A program made the translations under genes and the position numbers. Positions 13,756-62,169 of a stretch of DNA of 64,000 bases are shown piece after piece. Each line of letters starts with the position of its first letter. Within the stretch, counting starts at the first letter, position 1. The notes below the pieces were generated by a model. It was not told the origin of the DNA. It saw nothing but the letters and a program-made list of their open reading frames with translations, and searched no databases. This stretch comes from Octopus vulgaris (taxonomy: Eukaryota). The DNA lies in the NCBI GenBank assembly GCA_951406725.2, contig OX597839.1, forward strand, positions 1,302,001 to 1,366,000, given 5' to 3'.

Positions 13756-42754
<28,999 letters not shown>

Positions 42755-43696
42755 TGTTTATACAAATACAAATTCACCTGAAACAAGCATATATATATAT
42801 AAGGGGCGTGCACTCTCAGGTATGCAAGGTATGCGTTGCAAGCCCTGTGATTTTTTATCCATATGATCGGAAAATTAGATAAAATAGTTACTTTGTTTCA
42901 AAGAAAATCCGTCCAGTTGTTTTGGAAATATTTTGTCTCCCCTTCTCCTCTCTCAGTGACTCGTACTTCTGCTTTGAGAAGTTATGCTATGAGAAGACCC
43001 GCATGAGAAGACAGATACTCCCTCTCTGTCTCAGTTTGTCCTTCCTTCCTCTCTCTCTCTCTCTCTCACTCACTTAGTGATTTGTTTAAAAGACATGCTA
43101 AGAGCATAGGGCATTTGAAATATTTTTACCCCCTTCCTCTCTCTCTTAGTGGCTCGTCATGCTTTGAGAAGACCCGCATGACATCCCTCTCTGTCTCTTT
43201 GTTAGTTTGTCCCTCCTTCCTCTCTCTCTCTCTCTTAGTGACTTGATAAAACAGATGCTAGGAGGAAAGGTCGTTCATAATATTTTGTACCCCTGTCCTC
43301 TCTCTCTTTCAGTGGCATGTCATGCTTTGAGATGACCGCATGATACCCACTCTCTGTCTCTTTGCTAGTGTAGAATTGTTGCTAACCTTGTTCCATTTCT
43401 GACCGGAACAAAAGCAGTCCCATAATTCTTAAGCTAGCCAGCTGAAATTTTGGAATAACTTAGCGGTAAGTTTGAATTTTTTAACCAAAACGTCTGTTTG
43501 CACTATTATACTTTTGGAGTGTTCGGAAAACAAAAAATATAATCTATATTATAATTCTTATTTCAGAAGTAGCTAATTAATCTTAAATTAATTTAACTAA
43601 GGTAATTTTTCCGTTTTGTTGAAATTGACTTACAATTTACGCCGGCGCTTCCACGTGTGTTCGTATATAAGAACAACCTTTTACGAAATAAGTGAA

Positions 43697-45340
43697 ATGT
43701 GTGTTATAAACGATATTTTGAGAAATAGTTTTTCGAAAAGAGACTTCGATGGAAAACAATTAATTATAAATGGTGGGAGACCAGCACCGAATTTACCTAA
43801 TCTGCGAAGCTACAAGAAATTCACGAGACAATTCCAGGTTAATTTGTATGAAAAGAAAAAATGGTTAACTGGGAGTGCTATCCTTATTAAATTATTCTGT
43901 TGGCCTTGTTTACTTTTTTGCTTAGAAAAGAATGTTTGGAATGATAAAGGCTATGATGATTTAAATAATTTACATATGGCTATGTTAAAGCACAAACGTT
44001 CTCAAAAGCATATAAAATCTTTGATAGATCTTAAAATATTCGAGAATGTTCGCATAGACTTACAATTAGATGCATGTAAAAATCAAAGCATACAACACCA
44101 TAATGAGAAAGTCAGACGAAACAGATCCATTCTGCAACGATTGATCGATGTTGTTATTTTTTTAGGTTTCCAGGAATTATCGTTTTGAGGTCATTTTGAA
44201 TCTGAAGGCTCTAATAATAGTGGAAATTATAAAGAACTCGTATATGTAATCAGTAAATATGACAAAAAATGGAAAGTCATCTAGATACAGCTTCTATCTT
44301 CACCGGTCTGTCAAACAGAATTCAAAATAACTTGATCGATGCAATTCATAAAGTTATGTTGAATAAGATGCAAAAGTAAATCGAGCAAGCTAAGTTTGTT
44401 TCTATTTTTGTTGATGAGACATCTGTTGCCTCAGCATATTCACAACTGTCAACAGTTTTACGTTATGTTACAGAAGACTGTGTGACGAAAGAACGATTTA
44501 TCGGTTTTAGTGATGTTAGTGCAGATCGATCTGCAAATGCTTTATCTGAACATGTTTTTAAATGCATTGAATTGTGGAAATGTGAAAACAAATTGATTGC
44601 ACAAACCTATAACGGTGCCACTACAATGGCAGGACAATTAAATGGGTTTCAGGCAAAAGTAAGGAAGAAATATGAATGTGCGATCTTTATTCATTGTTGT
44701 GGCCATATTCTAAATTTAGTTCTTTCACAATCATGCTCTGCTATGAAAGAATGCAAGATATTTTTTTGTACAATAAACGGACTGAGTATATTTTTTACGA
44801 AATCACCGAAAACGGCTAGTGCGTTAGATAACATTGTTAAAAAAAAGATTTCCGAAGGCAACAGCAATGGAATTACTCCTCACGGCTTATTATTACCACA
44901 AAGGAAAATTATAATTTCATAATCAGCCTTTTTGAGCACATCATTGAAAATCCTGAAGCATAGGATGATACCACCATAAATTCAGCAATTGGATTCTTAC
45001 ACACTTTAAAAGCTCCTGATTTCTGATTTTTGTTAGAAGTATTCAGTGAGATTTTTTCTTTTACTGACGTCTTATTTAACATCCTCCAGAGTAAAAGTCA
45101 TGACATAGTGCATTGTAAAGAGCAAATAGATAAAACTAGAACTGTACTCGAAAACAAACTTGATAATCGGAATTCAGAGATCCAAGAATTGAGCGCCAAC
45201 GACATTATAAAATGCTTTATAACAAAATTATCAGTACAATAGTTGACCAAATAAAAGCACGATATTCATCCTTAGAAGAGTTTAAATTCATGGAACTTTC
45301 GAATTTCAACAAATTTGATGAGTATTGCAAACAATTTAAA
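43697..45340 (+). pseudogene. hAT transposase pseudogene with several stops and frameshifts and no visible C-terminal dimerisation domain
   Basis: ORF fragments 43616-44188, 44482-44922, 45030-45242, 45212-; TGA at 44186, TAA near 44377. Confidence 0.85.
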
Positions 45341-45421
45341 AATCATGGGTACTATTTAAGAAGAGTGGTCCCGGTGCGCGCACCAGAGCATCCACGCCAG
45401 CTAGTTGTGGCTAGTCGATCC

Positions 45422-45560
45422 TTACTTTGTGTTTTTGTGTTTTATTTACTTTGTTTAAAACATTATTTACTTTGTGTTTTTGTGTTTTATTTACTTTGTT
45501 TAAAACATTATTTACTTTGTGTTTTTGTGTTTTATATATTTTGTTTAAAAAAATTATTTA
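45422..45560 (+). repeat. Three copies of a 45-bp tandem repeat inside the hAT 3' region
   Basis: ttactttgtgtttttgtgttttatttactttgtttaaaacattat. Confidence 0.9.
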
Positions 45561-45761
45561 CTTTGCTTGATAGTCGTAGGATCGACTAGTCACGACTAGC
45601 CAGCGCGACGTTTTTTTTTCTAGGTCATACTGGGGTGATTGCATATTCAGAATCTCCCATATGTAAATCGCAGGAATTCGAAAATTTTTTGCTGAAAAAT
45701 TGCCGGGGGCGGGGGCAAAGAAATTCATTGCATGCCCAACCCCGGAAGTCACCGCACGCCA

Positions 45762-45850
<89 letters not shown>

Positions 45851-46418
45851 TACATACATGTTTATATATATATATATACACAAATATCTCTGTATATATA
45901 TGTATATATGTATGCATGTATTTTCGATTGATTTCTTTCAGTTTCTATCTACAAAATCCACTGACAAGGCTTTCGTTGTTCTGAGGCTATAGCAGAAGAA
46001 GCATTCCAAGTCACCACACAGCGGGACTGAACCCAGGACCATGTATTTTGGAACCAAGTTTGTTAGCACACAGCCACACCTGCACCTATGTATGTGTGTG
46101 TGGGGGGTTTGTGTGTATGGGTGTATATATGTATACGTGTATATATGTGTATATATATGTGTACATATTACATGTACATCTATATATATATATATATGTA
46201 TAATTCAAAATGTGACCGCGTGTGTACCGTTGGCGATTTTTTCCCTCTGTCTTCCCTTTTCTGGATCTTTCCTTCTCCTATGTTTCCGACGAAGAGCTCC
46301 GCTCGAAACGTTAATCCCTCCTTCTTTCCTTCTTTCCTGAGCGTCCAATAATACTATATTTTTTCCACGTCCTCGCGTTGTTGTGTTTTCTCTTTGTGTT
46401 TTCATGTTTGGATTAACG

Positions 46419-46507
<89 letters not shown>

Positions 46508-47397
46508 ACGGGAAGCTTTACGAAAATAAACAAAAGACGAAGGCAGGTGGAGTACAAACAAACAATGTATTAGTATGGCGCTCAGGAATAGAAATAAAAC
46601 AAGTATTTTACGTTTCGAGGCTACGCTCTTCGACAGAAAGATACACAGAAAAGAAACAAGGAGAGAAAAAAAAAATATATATACATTCACACCTACATAC
46701 ATATATATATATATACAGCAATAGAAACGGATAGAATAAGTACTATGCTTACAAAGAATAAGTCCTGGAGTCGATTTGCTCGATTAAAGGCGGTGCTTCA
46801 GCATGGCCACAGTCAAATAACTGAAGCCAATAAAAGAATAAAAGAACAAAGTCCAAATAAAGTGTACTGCACAAAGCAGAGACACAAACACTGAATGTAG
46901 TAGCAATTGACAAAATATGAGGAGGCAGATAAAAGTGAAACTAAATTGTTCCATGAAATATTAAACGTTCTAAAAACATGACCTACGTCAGAAAAATGTT
47001 GATATAATATCAAAAATGGAGTAGGAAGAGTAATCAAGATAATATCAACCAAATAAGGTAATGACAAACATTTGAAAAAGAAGACGGTTATAACAGAAAA
47101 CTCAAATCGAAGTAGCGATAAAAGAAATTATAAATGAGAAAATTTATATAAAATTGGCAAATTACGTATATGTTAACAAGGATATGTTAGCATTACTCAC
47201 AGTGATTTGTGTCAGTACAACAATTTAATGAGGAATGTATCTATACATTTTAACCAGCACTTGTGTGTGTGTGTGTGTGTGTGTGTTTATATATTTGAGT
47301 AATAAAGTTTTCATGATGGATTGTGTCAGATAGAAATGCTTTATAAATATTTTTTGAAAGCCAAAACAGGGATGTTATTTAAAAGTTTTGTCAAGAG

Positions 47398-47470
<73 letters not shown>

Positions 47471-47499
47471 TGTGTGTGTGTGTGTCTGTGCGTGTGTGT

Positions 47500-47544
<45 letters not shown>

Positions 47545-47713
47545 TGTGTCTCTGTGTGTGTGTGTGTTTTGTATATCCAGGTCACGGTTCTCTGCTCAGA
47601 AAATCTCTTGACAAAACTTTTAAATAGCTTCCCTGTTTTGTCTTTCAAAAAATATTTATAAAGCATTTCTATCTGACACAATCCATCATGAAAACTTTAT
47701 TACAAAAATACAT

Positions 47714-47764
<51 letters not shown>

Positions 47765-48465
47765 TGTTGGGTTAAATGTATAGATACATTCCTCATTAAA
47801 TTGCTGTACTGACACAAATCACTGTGAGTAATGCTAACAAATCCTTGTTAACATATACATAATTTGCCAATTTTATATAAATTTTCTCATTTATAATTTC
47901 TTTTATCGCTACTTCAATTTGAGTTTTCTGTTATATCCGTCTTCTTTTTTTAAATGTTTGTCATTATTTTACCTTATTTGGTTGATATTTTCTTGATTAC
48001 TCTTCCTACTCCATTTTTGATATTATATCAACATTGTCACCTCAGTTTTTCTGACGTAGGTCATGTTTTTAGAACGTTTAATATTTCATGGAACAGTTTG
48101 AATTCACAGAAAACAAAAGACGAAGATAAGCGAAGGGATAACAAGTAGGCATATATATACACGTACACTTCTGTGTGTGTGTGTGTGTGTATCCATACAT
48201 ATAAGGACGTATATAGATATACATACACAAATGTATAACATCAACACTTTGTTTCTCTAGTTTAGAATGCGAAAGATGAAGGAGAAGAGGAGGAAGAAGA
48301 AGAAGAAGAAGAAAAAGAAGAAGAAGAAGAAGAAGAAGAAGAAGAAGGAGGAGGAGAAGAAGAAGAAGAAGAAGAAGAAGAAGAAGAAGAAGAAGAAGAA
48401 GAAGAAGAAGAAGAAGAAGAAGAAGAAGAAGAAGAAGAAGAAGAAGAAGAAGAAGATATACTCAC

Positions 48466-48790
48466 ATAAACATTACCTTAGTGGTAGAGGCTGGGAAATG
48501 TCCTACGGTGACCGGAAACTTAGCTTTTTGTCAAGGCGGAACTATTGGTCAGTGGATGTCTCTTCTGGATGTCTCCTCTGAACGTTGCACCAGAATGTCA
48601 TGTGTCCTCTCTTCGCCGATCAACTTATATGTAATTCCTAGTAATGAGGAAAGGGTGTAGGAGTAGGAGAAAGAGGTGGAAAGTAAAGAAAGCTGTTTGT
48701 TTATTGTTGTTGTTGTTCACGTTTTGTTGATGTTGTTGTTGTCTGACATTGCTTTGACATGGAGACACGCCTATCAGTGATGGTGTGGTG
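48466..48790 (-). other. Putative non-coding first exon/promoter of the MIB2-like gene (segment A, copy 1)
   Basis: Ends in donor gtgagtat followed by (CTT)n; homologous to 59076-59435. Confidence 0.5.
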
Positions 48791-53590: not shown

Positions 53591-55699
53591 TGTATGTATG
53601 TATGTATGTATGTATGTATGTATGTATGTATGTCACTTCTATTTTTTAATTATTATAAATCTTCTCCTGAGGAGGGAGCTGGTTTCCAACAAAGATACAA
53701 AGCACCATCTTTGGAATGTAGTTAACACGAGACAAATTCACATCTGGAACTTGAGAAAGTCTTGCATATAATTTACTGTTCCACTCTATGTATGTATATA
53801 TGTATGTATATTAATACGCACACGAATACACACACATATATACATGCACATTCATTTATAATATTTTCAAAGTGATATTACTTTTTTAATAATGTGAGTA
53901 AATGAAAAAATATAAACTGGACACAGTCCCGAACTTCTTCAATCATTATATTATAGATAGATATTTATTGTATTAAAGTACAATAATTCAAAACACAAAG
54001 AACGCAAGAACTTATAGTGTAAAAATATTTATTGATGTTGTAACAATCAGTGTTATAATTTACCACATTGGGTAATCTGTCCTGTCACCTACTTGAAATA
54101 GGACAAAAGAGAAGGCACAATGTGAACGAAGGGCAAGAGATACATGAAGTTGGAATTTTTTCATACAGTTATCGTGATTTCAGTAGAGATTCGAAAAGGA
54201 AGAGAGAGGAGAAATTACATCTGTGGTTTGAAGGCTGGAATGATAGCGAGGAAATTTATCCATTAGATGAGCTGCCTATTTTCAAGCATGTCTAAGTTGT
54301 TAACCTGTGTAGCATCAGCATTGGCCTGGTAGTTCACTGTGGCCTTTGCATGAGAGTTGCTGTGAGTTAGCAATTTGTTGTGAGTTAGCAGAGATTTGTC
54401 GTGAGTTAGCATATTTTCTGAACTTGAAGTGGATGAACATTCTTAGTGATGCGGTGTTCTTTATATTAAACAGTGCATGTTTGTCAGCCCAAGTCTGTGA
54501 GAGATAGTTAGGTCTAGTGTATGTGACGTTTATGTTTGTGGATAGTGAATATGTCCTTGTGTTGTAGAAGGGGTACTTATGTGTTGGTCAGAGATTGATG
54601 TGAGAGGTGAAATAAACTGATGCAGGGAGTTGAACATAGCGAAAGGTTCGGTCTCTGTGTCTGCATTGTCAGTAAATAATAAGGGAGGGATCTAAGAAGA
54701 ATTATGAAGTTACCGAGGACGATTACAAATAAGAGGTAATTTTTAAAAAATGTGCGAGAAATACAGAGAGAAAGAGGGAGATAGAGAGAGGGGGTGATAT
54801 GTCTTCTTGACATATTTCAGACACAAGGAAGAAGACACACACACAGACAGGCAGACAGACTGGGAAACAGACAGTCAGGGAGTAAAAAGTGGAGAAATTT
54901 TTTCTATGTTGGAATAGAAATGACGGAAGAGTCATCATTGCTGTGATTTTTTTCAATTATGTTTTTTTTTCCAAATAACCAAGCGAAGAATGAACGTTCT
55001 AAAACAAAAGAAAAAAATATTAAATATAAGGAAAAGAAAAAAAAATAAACACAAAATACAGGAAAACTTTTCATTATAACTGTCCGGTTGAAGTCGGCTG
55101 TCTCTTATGTCTTAGATTGTGTTTGCATGTTATCGTACTTAGCATGAAAGGAGGCGAGCTGGCAGAAACGTTAGCACGCCCGGCGAAATGCTTGGCAGTA
55201 TTTCGCCTGTCTTTACATTCTGAGTTCAAATTCTGCCGAGGTCGACTTTACCTGCCATCCTTCCGGGGTCTATTAAATAAGCACCAGTTACGCACTGGGG
55301 TCGATATAATCGACTTAATCCGTTTGTCTGTCCTTGTTTGTCCCCTCTGTGTTAAGCCCCTTGTGGGTAGTAAACAAATAGGTATTTCGTCTGTCGCTAC
55401 GTTCTGAGTTCAAATTCCGCCAAGCTCGACTTTGCCTTTCATACTTTCGGGGTCGATAAATTAAGTAACACTTGCGTACTGGGGTCTATCAAATCGACAG
55501 GACCCCACCCCAAAAATTTCGGGCCTTGTGTCTAGAGTAGAAAAGAATATTGTACTTAACAGGAAAAATTATCTGTGTTAGTTGGTCGTCAGTGTAAACT
55601 CGTTAAAATATGTCTGTGTGAGTTTGTCAGAGAAATTTATCAAAAGTAAAGACATCCAGAATATTCTTGTAATTTAAGAAATAATAACGCACCTGGATG

Positions 55700-55825
55700 T
55701 TAATTCCTAACGTACGTTGCTACAGAAGAAACAGGAAGGATAACATTTCCTATTTTGTATCCAAAATTCACAACTATACAACCAGATGATGTTTCTTCCA
55801 TTATTTCACCTAGGAGACCAGGAAG
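55700..55825 (-). CDS. Diverged REP second-half exon of the upstream module: LPGLLGEIMEETSSGCIVVNFGYKIGNVILPVSSVATY(VRN*)
   Basis: Pyrimidine tract plus cccag acceptor. The phase-0 donor gttagg gives 114 nt (55712-55825), the same as 41219-41332. Read-through reaches TAA at 55700, followed by a second donor cag/gtgcgt. Confidence 0.7.
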   Translation of the reverse strand, partial: LPGLLGEIMEETSSGCIVVNFGYKIGNVILPVSSVATYVRN

Positions 55826-55873
55826 CTGGGTAAAGAGAAAATAAAAACAATTAGTCATATCTGTGTGCATATG

Positions 55874-55919
<46 letters not shown>

Positions 55920-56504
55920 TTTGAATTTGTGCTTGCTTCTACCTCTTGCATACTGATGTTTGTTTGCTTATGTCCCCGTAATATAGTGGTAACAGAGAGT
56001 TCAATAGAATAATTCCAAAACTGAGGAAGGGCAATCTGCTTGACTAAACAATTCACGGCGGTGCCTCAGCATCGTCACAGACCACGACTGAAACAAGTAT
56101 AAGAGGAAAAAGGCAGATCTAAAACTGAGACCCATTGTAGCAGGCCCGTTTAATGAAACATGCTACTGAAGTAATTTCAAAGGAATTCAACTAAAGTCTT
56201 TGCCCAAACACATACAGAGTTACGTACGAGATAATTTTCTTATATTCAACCATCTACCTATTACAGTAAACGAAAATACCTATCTTATTACATTTGATGC
56301 TGTGAGCTTATATAGCAATATTCCTCTCATCCCCACGGTTAGGCAAAGAGACAGATAGAATAAGTATCTGGCATTGATAAAAAAAAACAAAAGACAAAAG
56401 GACTCACCTTGATTCATTCAACTAAAAATTCTTTAAAGTGGAGCCCCAGCGTAGCCGCAGTCTAGTGACTGAAACAAGTTAAAGAATAAAAGAATAATTT
56501 GCGC

Positions 56505-56597
<93 letters not shown>

Positions 56598-56677
56598 TTT
56601 GTGTGCAAAAGATCACCTTGCGAATATATGCACAATTATATTTACTCTAAATATTTTTACTCTAAGATTAACTCTGA

Positions 56678-57020
56678 AGGCGCATGGCTCAGTGGTTAGA
56701 GCGTCGAGCTTACGATCGTGAAGTTGTGAGCTCGAATCCCGGACCGGGCTGCGTGTTGTGTTCTTGAGCAAGGCACTTTATTTCACGTTGCTCCAGTTCA
56801 CTCAGCTGTAGAAATGAGTTGCGACATCACTGGTGCCAAGCTGTATCGGCCCCTTTGCCCTTCCCTTGGATAACATCAGTGGTGGGGAGAGGGAAGGCTG
56901 GTATGCATGGGCGACTGCTGGACTTCCATAAACAACCTTGCCCGGACTTGTGTCTTGGAGGGTAACTTTCTAGGTGCAATCCCATGGTCATTCATGACCG
57001 AAGGGGGTCTTTACCCTTTA
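56678..57020 (+). mobile_element. tRNA-derived SINE (CORE-type body); truncated copy at 38100-38370
   Basis: A box tggctcagtggttaga, B box gctcgaatccc, ttgagcaaggcactt core. Confidence 0.8.
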
Positions 57021-57103
57021 AGATTAACTCTAAGATTAACGTAATAGTGTGTATAATGATGGGTATACTCAGGTATAGAAAATCAGTAATTAGATCTATT
57101 AGT

Positions 57104-57156
<53 letters not shown>

Positions 57157-57185
57157 CACTACGGCAAAATGTTATCACTACTTAC

Positions 57186-57299
57186 GTATTCCATATTTTC
57201 AGGAAGTGCACCATATCTCTTCTTTTGAAAATCCTGTAACTTTTTCAGGTCTTCTGTCACTCTTACTACTTCCCCAATTCTGGATCCAATTCCTCCCAT
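57186..57299 (-). CDS. Diverged REP first-half exon of the upstream 5' module (exon 57186-57331): MGGIGSRIGEVVRVTEDLKKLQDFQKKRYGALPENMEY
   Basis: ttgcag acceptor, gtaagt donor, 146-nt exon identical in size to 42632-42777; in-frame TGA precedes the ATG; aligns with the REP pattern G.vVr...D...v...Q...G.....M. Confidence 0.75.
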
Positions 57300-57396
57300 T
57301 CTTTCCACAAGTTCAATTCCACGTCAAACAACTGCAAAAGCAATAGTAGTAGCATATGGGAGTGGATAGATGGGTGGATGGACGGATGGATAGACT

Positions 57397-57449
<53 letters not shown>

Positions 57450-57591
57450 ATTTGAAAATGGATGCGTGGAGTTCAATAATATAGTAATATAAATAATTTA
57501 TAAATGCATATGCATATATACATATATATGTGTATATATATGCATATATATATGTGTATAAATATATATATATATATATGATTATATATCG

Positions 57592-57661
<70 letters not shown>

Positions 57662-58329
57662 ATGTATAGGACGTTACAAAACGTAGACGAGATGAAATAC
57701 TAAAACAACAAGAAATAGCAGATAAACATATGTATGCGAACAACGAGAGAAACAAATGAGAAACAAGACAAGTAACATAAAGAACGGTCCTTCATCAGTT
57801 GTCGGTTGTTTATCTACTCCACATTTCGAGCAATTTACGACAACATGATACATAAATACATGCATATATATATATATATATATATATTAACAATTGAGGA
57901 TAAAATCTTTAAAAGAAATTATCAGTAGTCAGCGTGAAAAACCTCGTAAGAGAAAAAATCCGTAAATTCTTCCTCTTTGAAAATATTCATTTATATTATA
58001 TTGAGGGTACTACTATTCGTAGATACCACACGCTAAGAGGGACCAATGCGGTCAAAACTACTAAAATAAACAAAATTTTACCGAATGCAAAACTTCAAAG
58101 CAAATCATTTTAAAAAAGAATTCAGTTACATATCACCTGTGATTTCGCATTTAAATGCAGAATATGCATTTCATGTTCATCAGTGCAACAAACTCAAGAA
58201 ATGTAAGGGAAAACATACCGTTACAAGCTCGATAGCCAACCGTAGAATTTGTCGTAGCATGTACGAATGTTTATCTTTACATATCTATGAAAATGGCGGG
58301 CTTATTCGCCATGCATTTCGGTAACAAAT

Positions 58330-58690
58330 TGCCTACTCGGAATAAAAAGGTACCATCCACTCTTGCCATTTTCGCAACATTCACCCACCTTTCAATAAAC
58401 TCACTCTCCGATCTCAATTTCCTTTTCAAATGAAACTCGAAGAAATCGATGAAAGCTCTACCGAGGAGGAATGATTTTTTCCTCATGCCTTTCAGCCTTG
58501 TTCACCAAACAACCTCTTCCGCTGTAGCCACCCGGCAAAGGAAAACTATCCGACTGAAGGTGGGCGGCGCTGCAATCATCACTACAGACTCGGACGACAA
58601 GGGGGTCATTCCCTCCCCCACCCGTGACAGCAACTGTTCGACATAACGCCACAAGTACGCAATGCCCGGACACTGAACGAGGGTGTGAAG
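58330..58690 (-). mobile_element. Probable Tx1/L1 ORF2 C-terminal fragment
   Basis: FFEFHLKRKLRSE..FIERWVNVAKMARV; GC-richer than the flanks. Confidence 0.5.
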
Positions 58691-58705
58691 AACAGTTTCG
58701 TCAAT

Positions 58706-59058
58706 GGAGGAGGAAGAAGAAGAAGAAGAAGAAGAAGAAGAAGAAGAAGAAGAAGAAGAAGAAGAAGAAGAAGAAGAAGAAGAAGAAGAAGGGGGAGGAG
58801 GAAGAAGAAGAAGAAGAAGGGGAGAGAAGGAAGAAGAAGAAGAAGAAGAAGGGGAGGAGGAGGAGGAGGAGGAGGAAGAAGAAGGGAAGGAGGAGGAGGA
58901 AGAAGAAGAAGGGAAGGAGGAGGAGGAAGAAGAAGAAGGGAAGGAGGAGGAGGAAGAAGAAGGGGAGAGAAGGAAGAAGAAGAAGAAGAAGAAGAAGAGG
59001 AAGAGGAAGAGGAAGAAGAAGAAGAAGGAGAAGAAGAAGGAGAAGAAGAAGAAGAAGA
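58706..59058. repeat. (GAA/GGA)n polypurine tract; similar tracts at 48275-48455, 61130-61700 (opposite strand) and 29400-29480
   Basis: Directly visible. Confidence 0.97.
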
Positions 59059-59075
59059 CATGCTCGTATACTCAC

Positions 59076-59435
59076 ATGAAAATTATCCCTACACTTAGAC
59101 GTAGTATAACGAGGAAACTTTGAGGAAGTTAACTTGATGATAGACAAAGAAATGTACTTTGGTTCTCTCCAAGACACAACTTTTGGTGAGATACAACGAT
59201 GAATGTGTCTGAATGTTGTGTGAAAATGTGTTCACCTCTCTTCGTATACCAACTTATGAGCTATTCTGTGTGTATGTGTGTGTGTGGGAGGAAGAGCTGA
59301 GGTGGAAGACTGAAAATGAGTGGGAGGTGGAAAGGAAAAATAGCTTGTTCGTTTATTGAAGTTGCTGCTATTTTCATTGTCGTTAACTTCCATTGATCTT
59401 GCTTAGAGACATGTCTATTATCAGTGCTGGTGACA
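59076..59435 (-). other. Putative non-coding first exon/promoter of the upstream REP module (segment A, copy 2)
   Basis: Same gtgagtat donor and (CTT)n; shared blocks cctctcttcg..caacttat, aggtggaaag..agct, gagaca..tatcagtg.tggtg. Confidence 0.5.
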
Positions 59436-62169
59436 GTGATCATAGTCGTGAGGATGTATACAATATATACAATACACTTTTCCATAGATAAATAAATAAT
59501 GTCCCATGAGGGAGCAAGGTGTGGATATGAGTAGGGTGAATATATGTTTTCATTTTAAAATGAGTTACAAGACAAGAATTCAATTAATTAAGGATAGGGT
59601 CACGACTCAGTGAAGGCTCACATAGCGGAGATGTAAACGGAACCTTTCCCCACTTTAGAAAAAACAAAATTATGGAATCCCATGTTTTAGGTTATGGTAA
59701 TTCCTATTCTGAATTTTTCTTTTTTTTAAATCGCAACTTCAAAATTTCAATTCCATGTCCCCCTCCACCATTTCTTCATTTTTTCACAGACAGAATATTG
59801 TTTAATAGCTAAAAGAGATTGTACTAATTTCACTAAAACTGGTGTTACTCTTACTGCATTGTGTGTGTGTGTGTGTGTATGATGAAATGAAATGGCTCCT
59901 TCTCGACTGATGCCAGGCTCATAAGGGCCGGTTTCTCACTTTCAGTGGTGTAGAAATTCCCCACCTGGACGGGATGTCGATGTATCACAGGATTGCTTAT
60001 TTTTGCCAGCTGAGTAGACAGGAGCAACGTGAAATGAAGTGTTTTGCTCAAGAACAGAAAGCATACAGAAAAAGAGTACTATTTATAAATTAAGTGCAGA
60101 GGCAGTTACACTAAATATAGTAGTAGCTGACACCAAGCAAGATAAAGTGAAAGTACATTTTTCCGCGAAATCGTGAGTTCTGTCAGTATGACCTACATCA
60201 GACAGAATATTGTTTAATAGCTAAAATTATTAACAAACAACAAGGCGTCGAGCTAGAAGATTCGTTGGCGCATCGAATTGAAATTTTTCAAACGATTTTT
60301 GCTTTTCAGAATCATAATCTCCGTATTTTTGTACGGATTTCGCAAAAAAAAAAAAAAAAAAACAAATCCGGAAAAAGTGAAAAAATGAAGAAATGGTGGA
60401 GGGGGGCATGGAATTGAAATTTTGAAGTTGCGATTTAAAAAAAAAAATTCAGAATAGGAATTACCATAACCTAAAACATGGGATTCCATAATTTTGTTTT
60501 TTTTTTAAAGTGGGGAAAGGTTCCGTTTACATCTCCGCCATGTGAGCCTTCACTGAGTCGTGACCCTATCCTTAATTAATTGAATTCTTGTCTTGAAAAT
60601 CCTTTTAAAATGAAAACATTATATATTCACCCTATTCATATCCACACCTTGCTCCCTCATGGGACATTATTTATTTATCTATGGAAAAGTGTATTATATA
60701 TATCGACATAAATGGATGTATGTATAAGTCTGAGTGTATATATGTCTATATATGTGTGTATGTGTATGTGTGCATGTGCGTGTGTGCTTATGTAGATGGA
60801 TGTATATATATAGCTATATCTCCGTGTATACATTTTATTTATTTATTTATTTATTTAGCTATGTCTGTTATAGCTTACATAGTTTATAATTCTCCTGAAC
60901 ACTCCTTAAATAATTGCTGCTCTGCTTTTACGGCAATACAGCCCACATTAGTTTTTCCCATTCCTTTTCTTTTCCTTTTCTTCTTTGCATCTATTTTTGC
61001 CTTCCCTATAACTCTAAGGTCACCAAACAGGTCTGTTAGCTGGGAGCATACTGTTAGCCACGAGCATACTCATAGATATACTGGTTCCCTATATATGGCC
61101 CCCACTTATTTTGTCTATGTTGTCTAGCTCCCTTCTCCGCCTCCTCCTCCTCCTTCTTCTTCTTCTTCTTCTTCTTCTTCTTCTTCTTCTTCTTCTCCTT
61201 CTTCTTCGCCTTCTTCTCCTTCTTCTTCTCCTCCTCCTCCTCCTTCTTTTTCTTCTTCTTCTTCTTCTTCTTCTTCTTCTCCTTCTCCTCCTACTCCTAC
61301 TCCTCCTCCTCCTTCTTCGTCTTCCTCTTTTTCTTCTTCTTCTTCTTCTTCTTCTTCTCTTCCTTCTTCTTCTTCTTCTTCTCCTCCTCCTCCTCCTCCT
61401 TCTTCTTCTCCTCCTCCTTCTCTTTCTTCTTCTTCTTCTTCTTCTTCTTCTTCTCCTTCTTCTTCTTCTTCTTCTTCTTCTCCCTCTTCTTCTTCTTCTT
61501 CTTCTTCTTCTTCTTCTTCTTCTTCTCCTCCTTCTTCTTCTTCTTCTTCTCCTCCTCCTCCTCCTCCTTCTTCTTCTTCTCCTCCTCCTTCTCTTTCTTC
61601 TTTTTCTTCTTTTTCTTCTTCTTCTCCCTCTTCTTCTTTTTCTTCTTCTTCTCCCTCTTCTTCTTCTTCTTCTTCTTCTTCTTCTTCTTCTTCTTCTCGT
61701 CTTCCAACCTTTCTTCCCACTACATAATCTCTATCCAACTTACTCATCCCATATCCACTAATATTTTTTTGTTTCCTCTCGATATAAGCTTAAAAAGAAA
61801 AAAAAAGTCTGATGAAGTGCCTCTTTAATGTTGGTTCAGAATCAATTGTAAGGAATCATTAAGGATGTGTTAAAGACTTTTCTTTGTCTTCTTATCATTT
61901 GGATTATTTACCCTTCGCTAAAGCTGCTTTACGGCAGTATTGTCGTGAAACTTGGATTCTGTACGCCCGAGAAATTCCTGTTTTGGCCTTAAAGCCGACA
62001 GTCATGAGAGCCCCCAGTATTCGGGTCGATTACTTCTCTGGAAATACCCTCACTTTTCACTCAATTATCTTTATCTTATATTAAACTTTTTAATACTTTT
62101 TGATAGTTATATTTATTAAAAAAAAAAATTAAAATAATAAATAATAATAATAATAATAATAAATATATA

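Follow-up and report, generated by a model that had tools for sequence, protein, structure and literature searches.

We report that the minus-strand exons lying upstream of a MIB2-like gene, in a window of 64,000 nucleotides of Octopus vulgaris DNA, are a separate spliced gene of four exons, with its own private last exon and polyadenylation signal. The gene is unannotated. Its 79-codon frame encodes a single diverged Mind bomb repeat (REP) that is predicted to be N-myristoylated, and the reading we favour, with some confidence, is that of a membrane-anchored decoy, devoid of enzymatic parts and directed to a new target. An earlier sequence-only reading had considered two outcomes for this module, a stand-alone 79-aa single-REP protein or an alternative N-terminal cassette of the neighbouring ligase; it is the stand-alone form that is found spliced in all three of the compared runs guessed to be RNA, and an annotated sister gene shares its read-through ending.

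Exon layout and transcripts

The exon layout proposed for the region was re-derived from the sequence and confirmed. Its features, together with the neighbouring gene, are the following:

59076..59330, minus strand: exon 1', promoter-proximal and non-coding, with homology to the first exon of the MZM-less MIB2 paralogues in the cluster; 5' end approximate
57331-57186, minus strand: exon 2', 146 nt, AG/GT flanks; 32-nt leader, TGA, then ATG at 57299
55825-55693, minus strand: exon 3' as transcribed, 133 nt, residues 39-79; from the X1, X5 and X9 contig pieces
54999..55692, minus strand: intron 3, 694 nt, GT-AG, with a high-copy repeat inside at about 55140-55550
54998-54012, minus strand: exon 4', private non-coding last exon (3'UTR), about 984 nt; from spliced contigs
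13759..48690, minus strand: neighbouring gene, an MZM-less MIB2 paralogue; separate gene, ends approximate

As previously described from the letters, exon 2' (57186-57331, with a stop and then an ATG) and exon 3' up to its ancestral donor GT at 55711 (55825-55712, 114 nt) have the same lengths as the paralogous exons of the neighbour (146 nt at 42777-42632 and 114 nt at 41332-41219). The ATG has a strong context, with A at -3 and G at +4, and exon 2' encodes residues 1-38, which start with MGGIGSR and form the first half of the REP domain. Reading through 55711 leads to the TAA at 55702-55700, for a total of 79 aa, followed by 7 nt of 3'UTR and by the used donor GT at 55692; the AATAAA expected near 54030 is at 54033-54028 in exon 4', and the contigs stop at 54015/54012. 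The donor consensus is matched at 3 of 7 positions by 55711 and at 6 of 7 by 55692. The 79-aa frame is the first and the longest ATG frame across exons 2'-4', and its stop codon is 7 nt ahead of the last exon junction. The last exon also contains frames of 78 and 71 aa, which we do not take for the main products, since they are downstream of the strong first ATG; a 1-nt insertion at 54739 in organism D would shift both.

Between exon 1' and its counterparts in other paralogues, identity is about 80% over 83 nt (E 3e-16). The earlier claim of a non-coding exon with its donor at 59075 holds as far as the exon and the candidate GT are concerned, but the position of the family donor, at about 59132 by alignment, has mutated to TT, and on this alignment the donor at 59075 is a replacement for the family's usual one.

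Transcript evidence was taken from assembled contigs. None of the 24 runs surveyed is recorded as RNA, 14 of the matching ones were guessed to be RNA, and four of the 20 containing matching sequence were compared. The splice 55693>54998, which the sequence-only reading had proposed to look for as a junction to a downstream UTR exon, was present in 3 of the 3 runs of guessed RNA type examined (X1, X5 and X9, from three studies and organisms A and B), and the same contigs pass the donor at 55711 and the TAA unbroken before splicing into exon 4'. Their exon 3' pieces (55693-55825) show 0, 0 and 1 differences, respectively. The X1 contig begins with 146 further letters, the length of exon 2' (their sequence is outside the compared stretch), and its 1263 nt are exactly exons 2', 3' and 4' (146+133+984); the X9 contig has 224 nt 5' of exon 3', or 146 + 78, which would be exon 2' and part of exon 1'. 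From these lengths we infer the junctions 59076>57331 and 57186>55825. In the DNA-type run X20 a contig crosses both splice sites unspliced. A retrocopy as the origin of the spliced contigs was rejected, because the last exon (54015-54720) has a single match in the genome and the DNA contigs are unspliced. Four guessed-RNA runs contain almost none of the gene's words, which is not proof of absence; an expression ranking from contig depths was not made.

Repeat ancestry and N-terminal signature of the protein

Judged by profile comparison, the 79-aa frame is a diverged MIB repeat, with homology beyond chance. The spliced frame scores 19.9 bits against a profile of octopus REPs from which it had been left out, a value reached by none of 3000 shuffles (best shuffle 9.2), and exon sizes and phases agree with the REP1 exon boundaries. 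Conserved REP columns are kept in 17 of 32 cases, mostly glycines and strand hydrophobics (including G9, G41, G44 and V12/V14/I55/V57/F59); because the other 15 are lost, including the H and W of GHGGW and the NP motif, we regard an SH3-like fold as putative. The replacement of GHGGW by KRYGAL, already recognized from the sequence, was confirmed: the GHG(G/E)W motif is absent, with one Gly kept, and the REPs of the cluster are all only 17-27% identical to this one. PMC5345843 places GHGGW within the pocket by which the first repeat binds Jag1. Neither ankyrin repeats nor a RING are encoded, as the transcript ends after one REP.

The SH3_15 scan that had been suggested was favourable in part: among 24,736 Pfam families SH3_15 is the best for exon 2' (E 0.05, 14.3 bits), but below the 24-bit cut-off, and exon 3' matched none of these families. 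On the half-profile exon 3' alone was not above shuffles, 511 of 3000 reaching its score. Homologues of the exon 2' frame (46 aa) were searched for among longer and near-length proteins without finding any, nor was any database protein with shared sequence found. Exon 2' was also searched against 1.84 billion proteins, where the two returned, both repeat-inflated and unrelated, were dismissed as chance, and against PDB sequences, with chance helical matches only. The best ESM Atlas score for exon 3' was 0.88, to an unnamed entry.

The protein starts with MGGIGS, corresponding to the N-terminal MGxxxS/T signature that PMC4910163 gives for N-myristoylation, and this modification is accordingly a prediction from the motif. 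The signature is a new observation. It is found in 6 of the 11 exon-A-type starts of the cluster (Gly2 in 7 of 11) and is absent in true MIB2, where the corresponding exon is internal; the neighbouring ligase starts with MDSNAS and has neither Gly2 nor MGxxxS.

The MIB2 cluster, the sister gene and the rate of evolution

MZM-less MIB2 paralogues form a tandem cluster in which the gene sits, and several of the copies are broken. For two recent paralogue pairs pN is 0.083 and 0.094, pS 0.036 and 0.042, and overall DNA divergence 0.031 and 0.039, so that pN is about 2.3 times pS (pooled p 4e-4). True MIB2, with MIB_HERC2 domains, is at C26:2.51-2.57 Mb, and MIB_HERC2 matches on C26 are confined to 2.54-2.57 Mb; first-exon homologues also occur at C26:23.89-23.91 Mb, with no REP exon in the 45 kb examined there. 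The neighbouring ligase has a first exon with a donor at about 48476, REP1-REP2-REP3 (exon 38759 having a phase-0 acceptor), ankyrin repeats and two RINGs. Our region had been described as a duplicate of its first three exons; homology is real and exon sizes and phases match, but the first exons of other paralogues in the cluster resemble exon 1' more (64-67% identity) than the neighbour's does (57%). A stop at intron codon 4 after exon B is present in MIB2 and in several paralogues. The sequence-only reading had missed the last exon 54998-54012, as well as the MGxxxS start, the tandem cluster, the 81-aa sister and the acceleration of the gene's evolution.

The sister gene encodes an 81-aa 'Mind bomb SH3 repeat domain-containing protein' (93 aa in one annotation):

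C26:1664150-1663015, same chromosome arm: sister gene, two coding exons; proteins CAI9741135.1 (P0003), XP_029651428.1 (P0005), A0A0L8HSN5 (P0006) and GAB1602226.1/GAB1602228.1 (P0004/P0007)

It was found in three Octopus species and in Argonauta, with 81-99% identity between species, a full SH3_15 match (75.7 bits) and an intact GHGGW. It has one REP and the MGxxxS start, all five proteins keeping G2 and S6 from a shared Met; its stop is reached by read-through of the exon-B donor, into the same intron as in the 79-aa gene, and no ANK or RING match was found near it. The sister is an automatic annotation, for which literature searches found no published study. AlphaFold2 on a 5-row alignment gave an unusable model (pLDDT 41.5), and its top ESM Atlas matches were unnamed bacterial clusters (0.91-0.92), the nearest SH3_15 cluster, at 0.87, being a lead only. 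The two genes have the same anatomy, but they share 24% identity and the 79-aa gene has lost GHGGW; unlike the sister, it has the 114-nt exon, a longer leader and the first exon of the three-REP paralogues. These features suggest that it is a second truncation, and that the two likely arose independently.

To evaluate retention of the frame we simulated neutral decay (substitutions only, starting from two paralogue sequences, 5000 runs). At d=0.3 no more than 2.5% of the runs kept an open frame with MGxxxS/T, and for d>=0.45 no more than 0.5% did; an open frame alone was kept in 3-13%. The previous argument that an intact frame points to selection agrees with the rarity of frame and signature together under neutral decay, but dN of about 1 and dS of 1-2 against all paralogues are saturated and purifying selection lacks direct support from dN/dS. 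In organism D the exon 3' region has 20 differences and 0 gaps in 199 nt, as compared with 27 differences over 1130 nt of intron and UTR (Fisher p 3e-6); the 20 may include a stop, fall in the flanks or reflect a paralogous copy. The protein-tree branch is 3.97 long versus a median of 0.21, while the exon-1 DNA branch is ordinary, at 0.24. By these comparisons the coding exons change far faster than the gene's own non-coding exons. The long branch falls among REP2/REP3 rows without reliable support, and placement in the exon-1 DNA tree is not resolved (69/71).

Candidate functions and their meaning for the family

For the decoy reading, the following course may be proposed. A three-REP paralogue would have been duplicated in its 5' part only; the exon-B donor of this copy would have weakened, with read-through into the stop already present at intron codon 4, and a donor further downstream would then have been recruited together with a new 3' exon. 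By the 50-nt rule the message should escape nonsense-mediated decay and be translated. NMT would add myristate at Gly2, and the putative SH3-like barrel could occupy a target close to the membrane, be it one of the substrates of the cluster's ligases or a factor that a pathogen directs against these ligases. There being no RING, this target would be shielded from ubiquitylation; the pocket would owe its remodelling to repeated positive selection. A RING-less Mib is described as dominant-negative in flies (bioRxiv 10.1101/2024.03.01.582834).

The decoy or dominant-negative role suggested earlier is thus kept as regards a likely enzyme-less decoy, but its Notch-ligand target is weakened by the replacement of GHGGW. 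A classical dominant-negative, binding the Delta/Serrate C-box and blocking MIB1/MIB2, would agree with the C-box binding of REP reported in PMC11887331 and with a membrane anchor raising local concentration; yet the lost motif belongs to the Jag1-binding pocket (PMC5345843), most ligand binding is attributed to the MZM in PMC11887331, and the conserved 81-aa sister would fit this role better, so that we hold it very improbable here. A more serious competitor, still rather unlikely, is a myristoylated adaptor or effector acting outside the ligase system, for example in gametes or immunity, whose target would not be related to the substrates of the paralogues. The low identity to cluster REPs, the replaced pocket motif and the extreme branch length speak for it; the gene nevertheless has not left the cluster, both its first exon and its N-terminal motif are those of the family, and the sister shows that a stand-alone form can retain an intact pocket. 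Present data do not sharply separate this adaptor from the decoy.

A transcribed 5' duplicate in decay (pseudogene or lncRNA), its frame open by luck or recently released from selection, would account for the missing annotation, dN near dS against paralogues, the lost signature motif and the broken copies in the cluster, and the frame alone does survive some neutral runs. We consider it improbable, since an open frame with ATG, Gly2 and Ser6 is rare under neutrality, splice sites are intact, the message is polyadenylation-ready in two organisms, and relaxation alone cannot give above-neutral divergence in organism D. The cassette, in which 55711 would join exon 38759 and give the neighbour's REP2-REP3-ANK-RING body a variant REP1 bearing myristate, has compatible phases and would alter the localisation of a ligase lacking Gly2; exon 38759 is outside the compared stretch and contigs drop rare forms. 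All three contigs, however, cross the poorly matching donor into the private polyadenylation exon, which leaves the cassette hardly credible. Variable-first-exon loci, such as the clustered protocadherins and UGT1A, splice a variable exon to shared constant exons. Our module resembles them in being a tandem 5' unit that brings its own first exon and precedes a body of compatible phase, but it ends in its own last exon and joins no such body in 3/3 contigs, and the substrate-switching ligase imagined by analogy is not supported.

REP-derived sequence and exon boundaries are common to the gene and the MIB2/MIB1 E3 ligases (Pfam SH3_15 PF18346; PDB 4TSE, 4XI6); the 79-aa protein differs in having no MZM, ankyrin or RING and one repeat instead of two, and the gene has a new ATG and predicted lipid anchor in an exon that is internal to MIB2. 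As in trans-microProteins (Id, LITTLE ZIPPER, miP1a/b), a small single-domain gene derives from duplication and domain loss, following the definition in PMC9638782; the 79-aa protein has its own gene and transcript, a single domain and a size below 20 kDa. Unlike them, its parent is an E3 ligase and not a transcription factor, it has a predicted lipid anchor, its interaction surface is diverging rather than conserved, and the interaction is putative.

The selection signal is the sole basis on which an immune or defence role is possible. Tentatively, lipid-anchored single-REP microproteins may have been made twice from MIB2 in octopods by the same route, a weakened donor followed by an intronic stop, one frozen (Octopus, Argonauta) and one racing under diversifying selection, both within a cluster where MZM-less E3 ligases, themselves membrane-anchored, are under positive selection, as an undescribed cephalopod ligase-plus-decoy defence system.

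This expressed, unannotated small gene displays a stepwise route from a multidomain ligase to a microprotein: a new ATG and lipidation motif in an internal exon, a weakened donor whose read-through meets a stop that the intron already contained, and a newly acquired last exon by which decay should be avoided. Through it an expansion of MIB2 genes without MZM, marked by excess amino-acid change, comes to light in octopods. Since engineered MZM-less Mib1 is described as a REP-dependent dominant-negative in flies (PMC11887331), the natural MZM-less genes and stand-alone repeats offer a handle on REP acting alone, and on a possible host-defence module of cephalopods.

Gene anatomy and transcript

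A sequence-only reading had placed, upstream of the neighbouring MIB2-like ligase gene, minus-strand counterparts of that gene's 146-nt and 114-nt exons, and both coordinates and sizes were confirmed:

57331-57186, minus: exon 2' of the microprotein gene (146 nt), a stop, then ATG at 57299
55825-55712, minus: exon 3' to its ancestral donor (114 nt), GT at 55711
42777-42632 and 41332-41219, minus: the neighbour's corresponding exons (146 and 114 nt)

If the GT at 55711 is read through, the frame continues to a TAA at 55702-55700 and encodes 79 aa. The best Pfam family for exon 2' was SH3_15 (PF18346, the Mind bomb repeat, REP) at E 0.05 and 14.3 bits, below the 24-bit cut-off, and exon 3' alone had no Pfam match. 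Against a profile built from 17 further REP units of the same genome, to which it is 17-27% identical, the spliced 79-aa frame scored 19.9 bits, which none of 3000 shuffles reached (best 9.2); exon 3' alone did not exceed its shuffles (511/3000 equal or better). The frame retains 17 of 32 conserved REP columns, chiefly glycines and strand hydrophobics, and lacks the NP motif as well as the histidine and tryptophan of GHGGW. Directly upstream of exon 1', an inverted repeat (59544-59669 and 60494-60619, 94% over 126 nt, arms 824 nt apart) is possibly a small transposon.

Part of 53950-55855 is contained in 20 of the 24 sequencing runs listed, with RNA nature recorded for none; four of the 20 (X1, X5, X9 and X20) were compared over 53660-55855. 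Three studies supplied X1 and X5 (both organism A) and X9 (organism B); in each of these runs one contig joins 55825-55693 directly to 54998 and extends to 54015 or 54012, with 0, 0 and 4 differences; the skipped 694-nt segment starts with GT and ends with AG. Because the DNA-type run X20 continues unspliced through both splice sites and the last exon has a single genomic match, we regard these contigs as spliced RNA. The X1 contig (1263 nt) equals 146+133+984 exactly, its leading 146 letters lying outside the compared stretch; that of X9 has 78 extra letters upstream, and that of X5 has 22 unaligned letters past 54012, which is 16 nt beyond the AATAAA at 54033-54028. The stop codon lies 7 nt upstream of the last junction, a position that should escape decay.

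All three spliced contigs read past 55711 and then use 55693>54998 into the gene's own last exon, as expected from the stand-alone 79-aa outcome, one of two that had been proposed. The other, a cassette joining exon 3' by 55712>38759 to the neighbour's body, did not hold as the main form: no contig of X1, X5 or X9 used 55711, in a stretch without exon 38759, and the used donor at 55692 matches the consensus at 6/7 positions, the skipped one at 3/7. The main form of the transcript is therefore stand-alone, and as an account of the gene the cassette is very improbable. Contigs lose rare variants and the compared stretch excludes exon 38759; a rare 55712>38759 form is conceivable.

The MIB2 paralogue cluster

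The window corresponds to C26:1302001-1366000. PF18346 matched the genome 28 times, 25 times on contig C26 (0.73-2.54 Mb; about 0.88 Mb of this 1.8-Mb span was examined) and three times on C13, where MIB1 is located. True MIB2, carrying MIB_HERC2 domains, is found at C26 2.51-2.57 Mb, and 0.72-1.35 Mb holds a tandem cluster of five MZM-less REP-ANK-RING paralogues (the window's ligase gene included) with truncated copies. MIB2 has its first REP exon in an internal position; in the paralogues this exon has gained an ATG. Among 11 exon-A-type starts, the microprotein gene counted, Gly2 occurs in seven and MGxxxS in six; the 11 include the neighbour's MDSNAS, two MSCCCS and one broken copy. MGxxxS/T is described as the NMT signature (PMC4910163). 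After exon B, codon 4 of the intron is an in-frame stop in two paralogues as well as in MIB2 and the window's gene, and both the microprotein gene and its single-REP sister gene terminate there.

The neighbour's start (42754-42737, minus), MDSNAS without the family Gly2, suggests that it may be a non-anchored member. Two paralogues carry an extra exon-A-like exon with an MSCCCS start, placed after the first exon and before the main exon A (C26:997090, minus; 1045530, plus); it has a phase-0 donor, for which no partner exon was found. These could be alternative first coding exons replacing a myristoylation-like start with a palmitoylation-like one, the cassette idea realised elsewhere. A likely linker exon of the neighbour, read by eye at about 35260-35154 (minus), is entered in phase 1 and left in phase 0, which makes the REP exons on either side compatible in phase, and introns of that gene hold transposase-like remains (40000-41050 and 43600-45300), by eye presumably mariner-like and hAT-like. 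Some 22 Mb away, two family first-exon copies (C26:23892693 and 23905827, minus) belong to a tandem duplication of 13 kb, and no REP exon occurs within 45 kb; at 23878026 is a candidate coding exon with an Ala/Arg-rich beginning. Broken or rearranged copies (C26:1154414-1154745, 859740, 729329-731714 and 2476370) comprise an inverted exon B, an exon A with a stop, an exon A with exon B not detected, and a lone duplicate of the MIB2 REP2 exon.

Evolution and predicted function

Exon 1' shares 57-67% identity with the first exons of paralogues, a range inside or slightly under the 61-70% of other non-recent pairs; per codon position the coding exons match at only 32-52%, where other non-recent REP1 pairs reach 46-77%. 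Branch lengths are 0.24 for exon 1 and 3.97 for the protein (median 0.21); dN/dS against paralogues is saturated. Organism D shows 20 gapless differences in 199 nt over exon 3', against 27/1130 in UTR and intron (p 3e-6), the 20 being known as counts and not as letters, with a stop or a paralogous copy possible. In two recent paralogue pairs (15 gapless exon pairs; DNA divergence 0.031 and 0.039), pN (0.083 and 0.094) is about 2.3 times pS (0.036 and 0.042; pooled p 4e-4); the amino-acid excess falls in REP and ankyrin exons, with RING1 spared in the single pair compared.

Under substitution-only neutral decay (5000 runs), 3-13% of runs keep an open frame, but at most 2.5% at d 0.3 and 0.5% at d >= 0.45 keep it together with MGxxxS/T; the simulation does not bear on a recent loss of function. 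The rarity of the combination counts against a transcribed relic, which we consider improbable, and with good confidence we regard the gene as a functional stand-alone coding gene. It has a spliced transcript of its own, encodes a single diverged REP with a lipidation signature and without a catalytic part, and changes rapidly. According to the literature, REP binds the ligand C-box, with MZM dominating binding, and Mib1 without MZM is a REP-dependent dominant-negative (PMC11887331); Mib without RING is dominant-negative (10.1101/2024.03.01.582834); the Jag1 pocket includes GHGGW and the MIB repeats are essential in fly Mib2 (PMC5345843); and the repeat is SH3-like (PMC11701565).

The product is rather probably a membrane-anchored decoy. 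The predicted myristoylated barrel would sit at membranes and occupy either a target of the cluster's ligases or an antagonist directed at those ligases; whichever it occupies would be shielded from ubiquitylation, the pocket having been retuned away from Notch ligands. Target identity is the weak step. A decoy for Notch ligands themselves is hardly credible, and an independent adaptor is unlikely. Such a decoy would work like a trans-microProtein (PMC9638782), its inhibitory effect being only predicted; the gene is neither a Mind bomb ligase nor a variable-exon cassette. Searches of non-subscription papers, supplements aside, yielded no account of stand-alone repeats in octopods or of the MZM-less MIB2 cluster, and passages of one cephalopod review mention neither; genome-paper supplements may list the expansion.

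The sister gene

The sister gene's module is as follows:

C26:1664167-1663015 (module also given from 1664150), minus: locus L090, MGxxxS single REP with GHGGW intact

Near it no REP2, ankyrin or RING was matched. The microprotein gene shares only 24% identity with it. It has in common with the three-REP paralogues the 114-nt exon (sister 111), the longer leader and the first exon, none such being found in the 90 kb around the sister (best E 0.32); we infer that it probably arose as a second, independent truncation, a point that trees do not settle.

A search with the sister's first coding exon gave two candidates, both matching and both 81 aa long: P0003, whose label is Octopus vulgaris, and a protein of Argonauta hians. 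Members of their protein cluster bring in O. sinensis (annotated at 93 aa) and O. bimaculoides, together with another Argonauta copy. Of these five proteins (P0003-P0007), three come from as many Octopus species and two are Argonauta copies; the four besides P0003 share 81-99% identity with it. G2, S6 and GHGGW are retained in every one, as is a read-through tail at the end, and Pfam scores are 75.7 and 70.3 bits. Stand-alone MG-headed single repeats thus form a conserved octopod class, and the sister gene is a better candidate than the microprotein gene to be a genuine decoy of a ligand or substrate.
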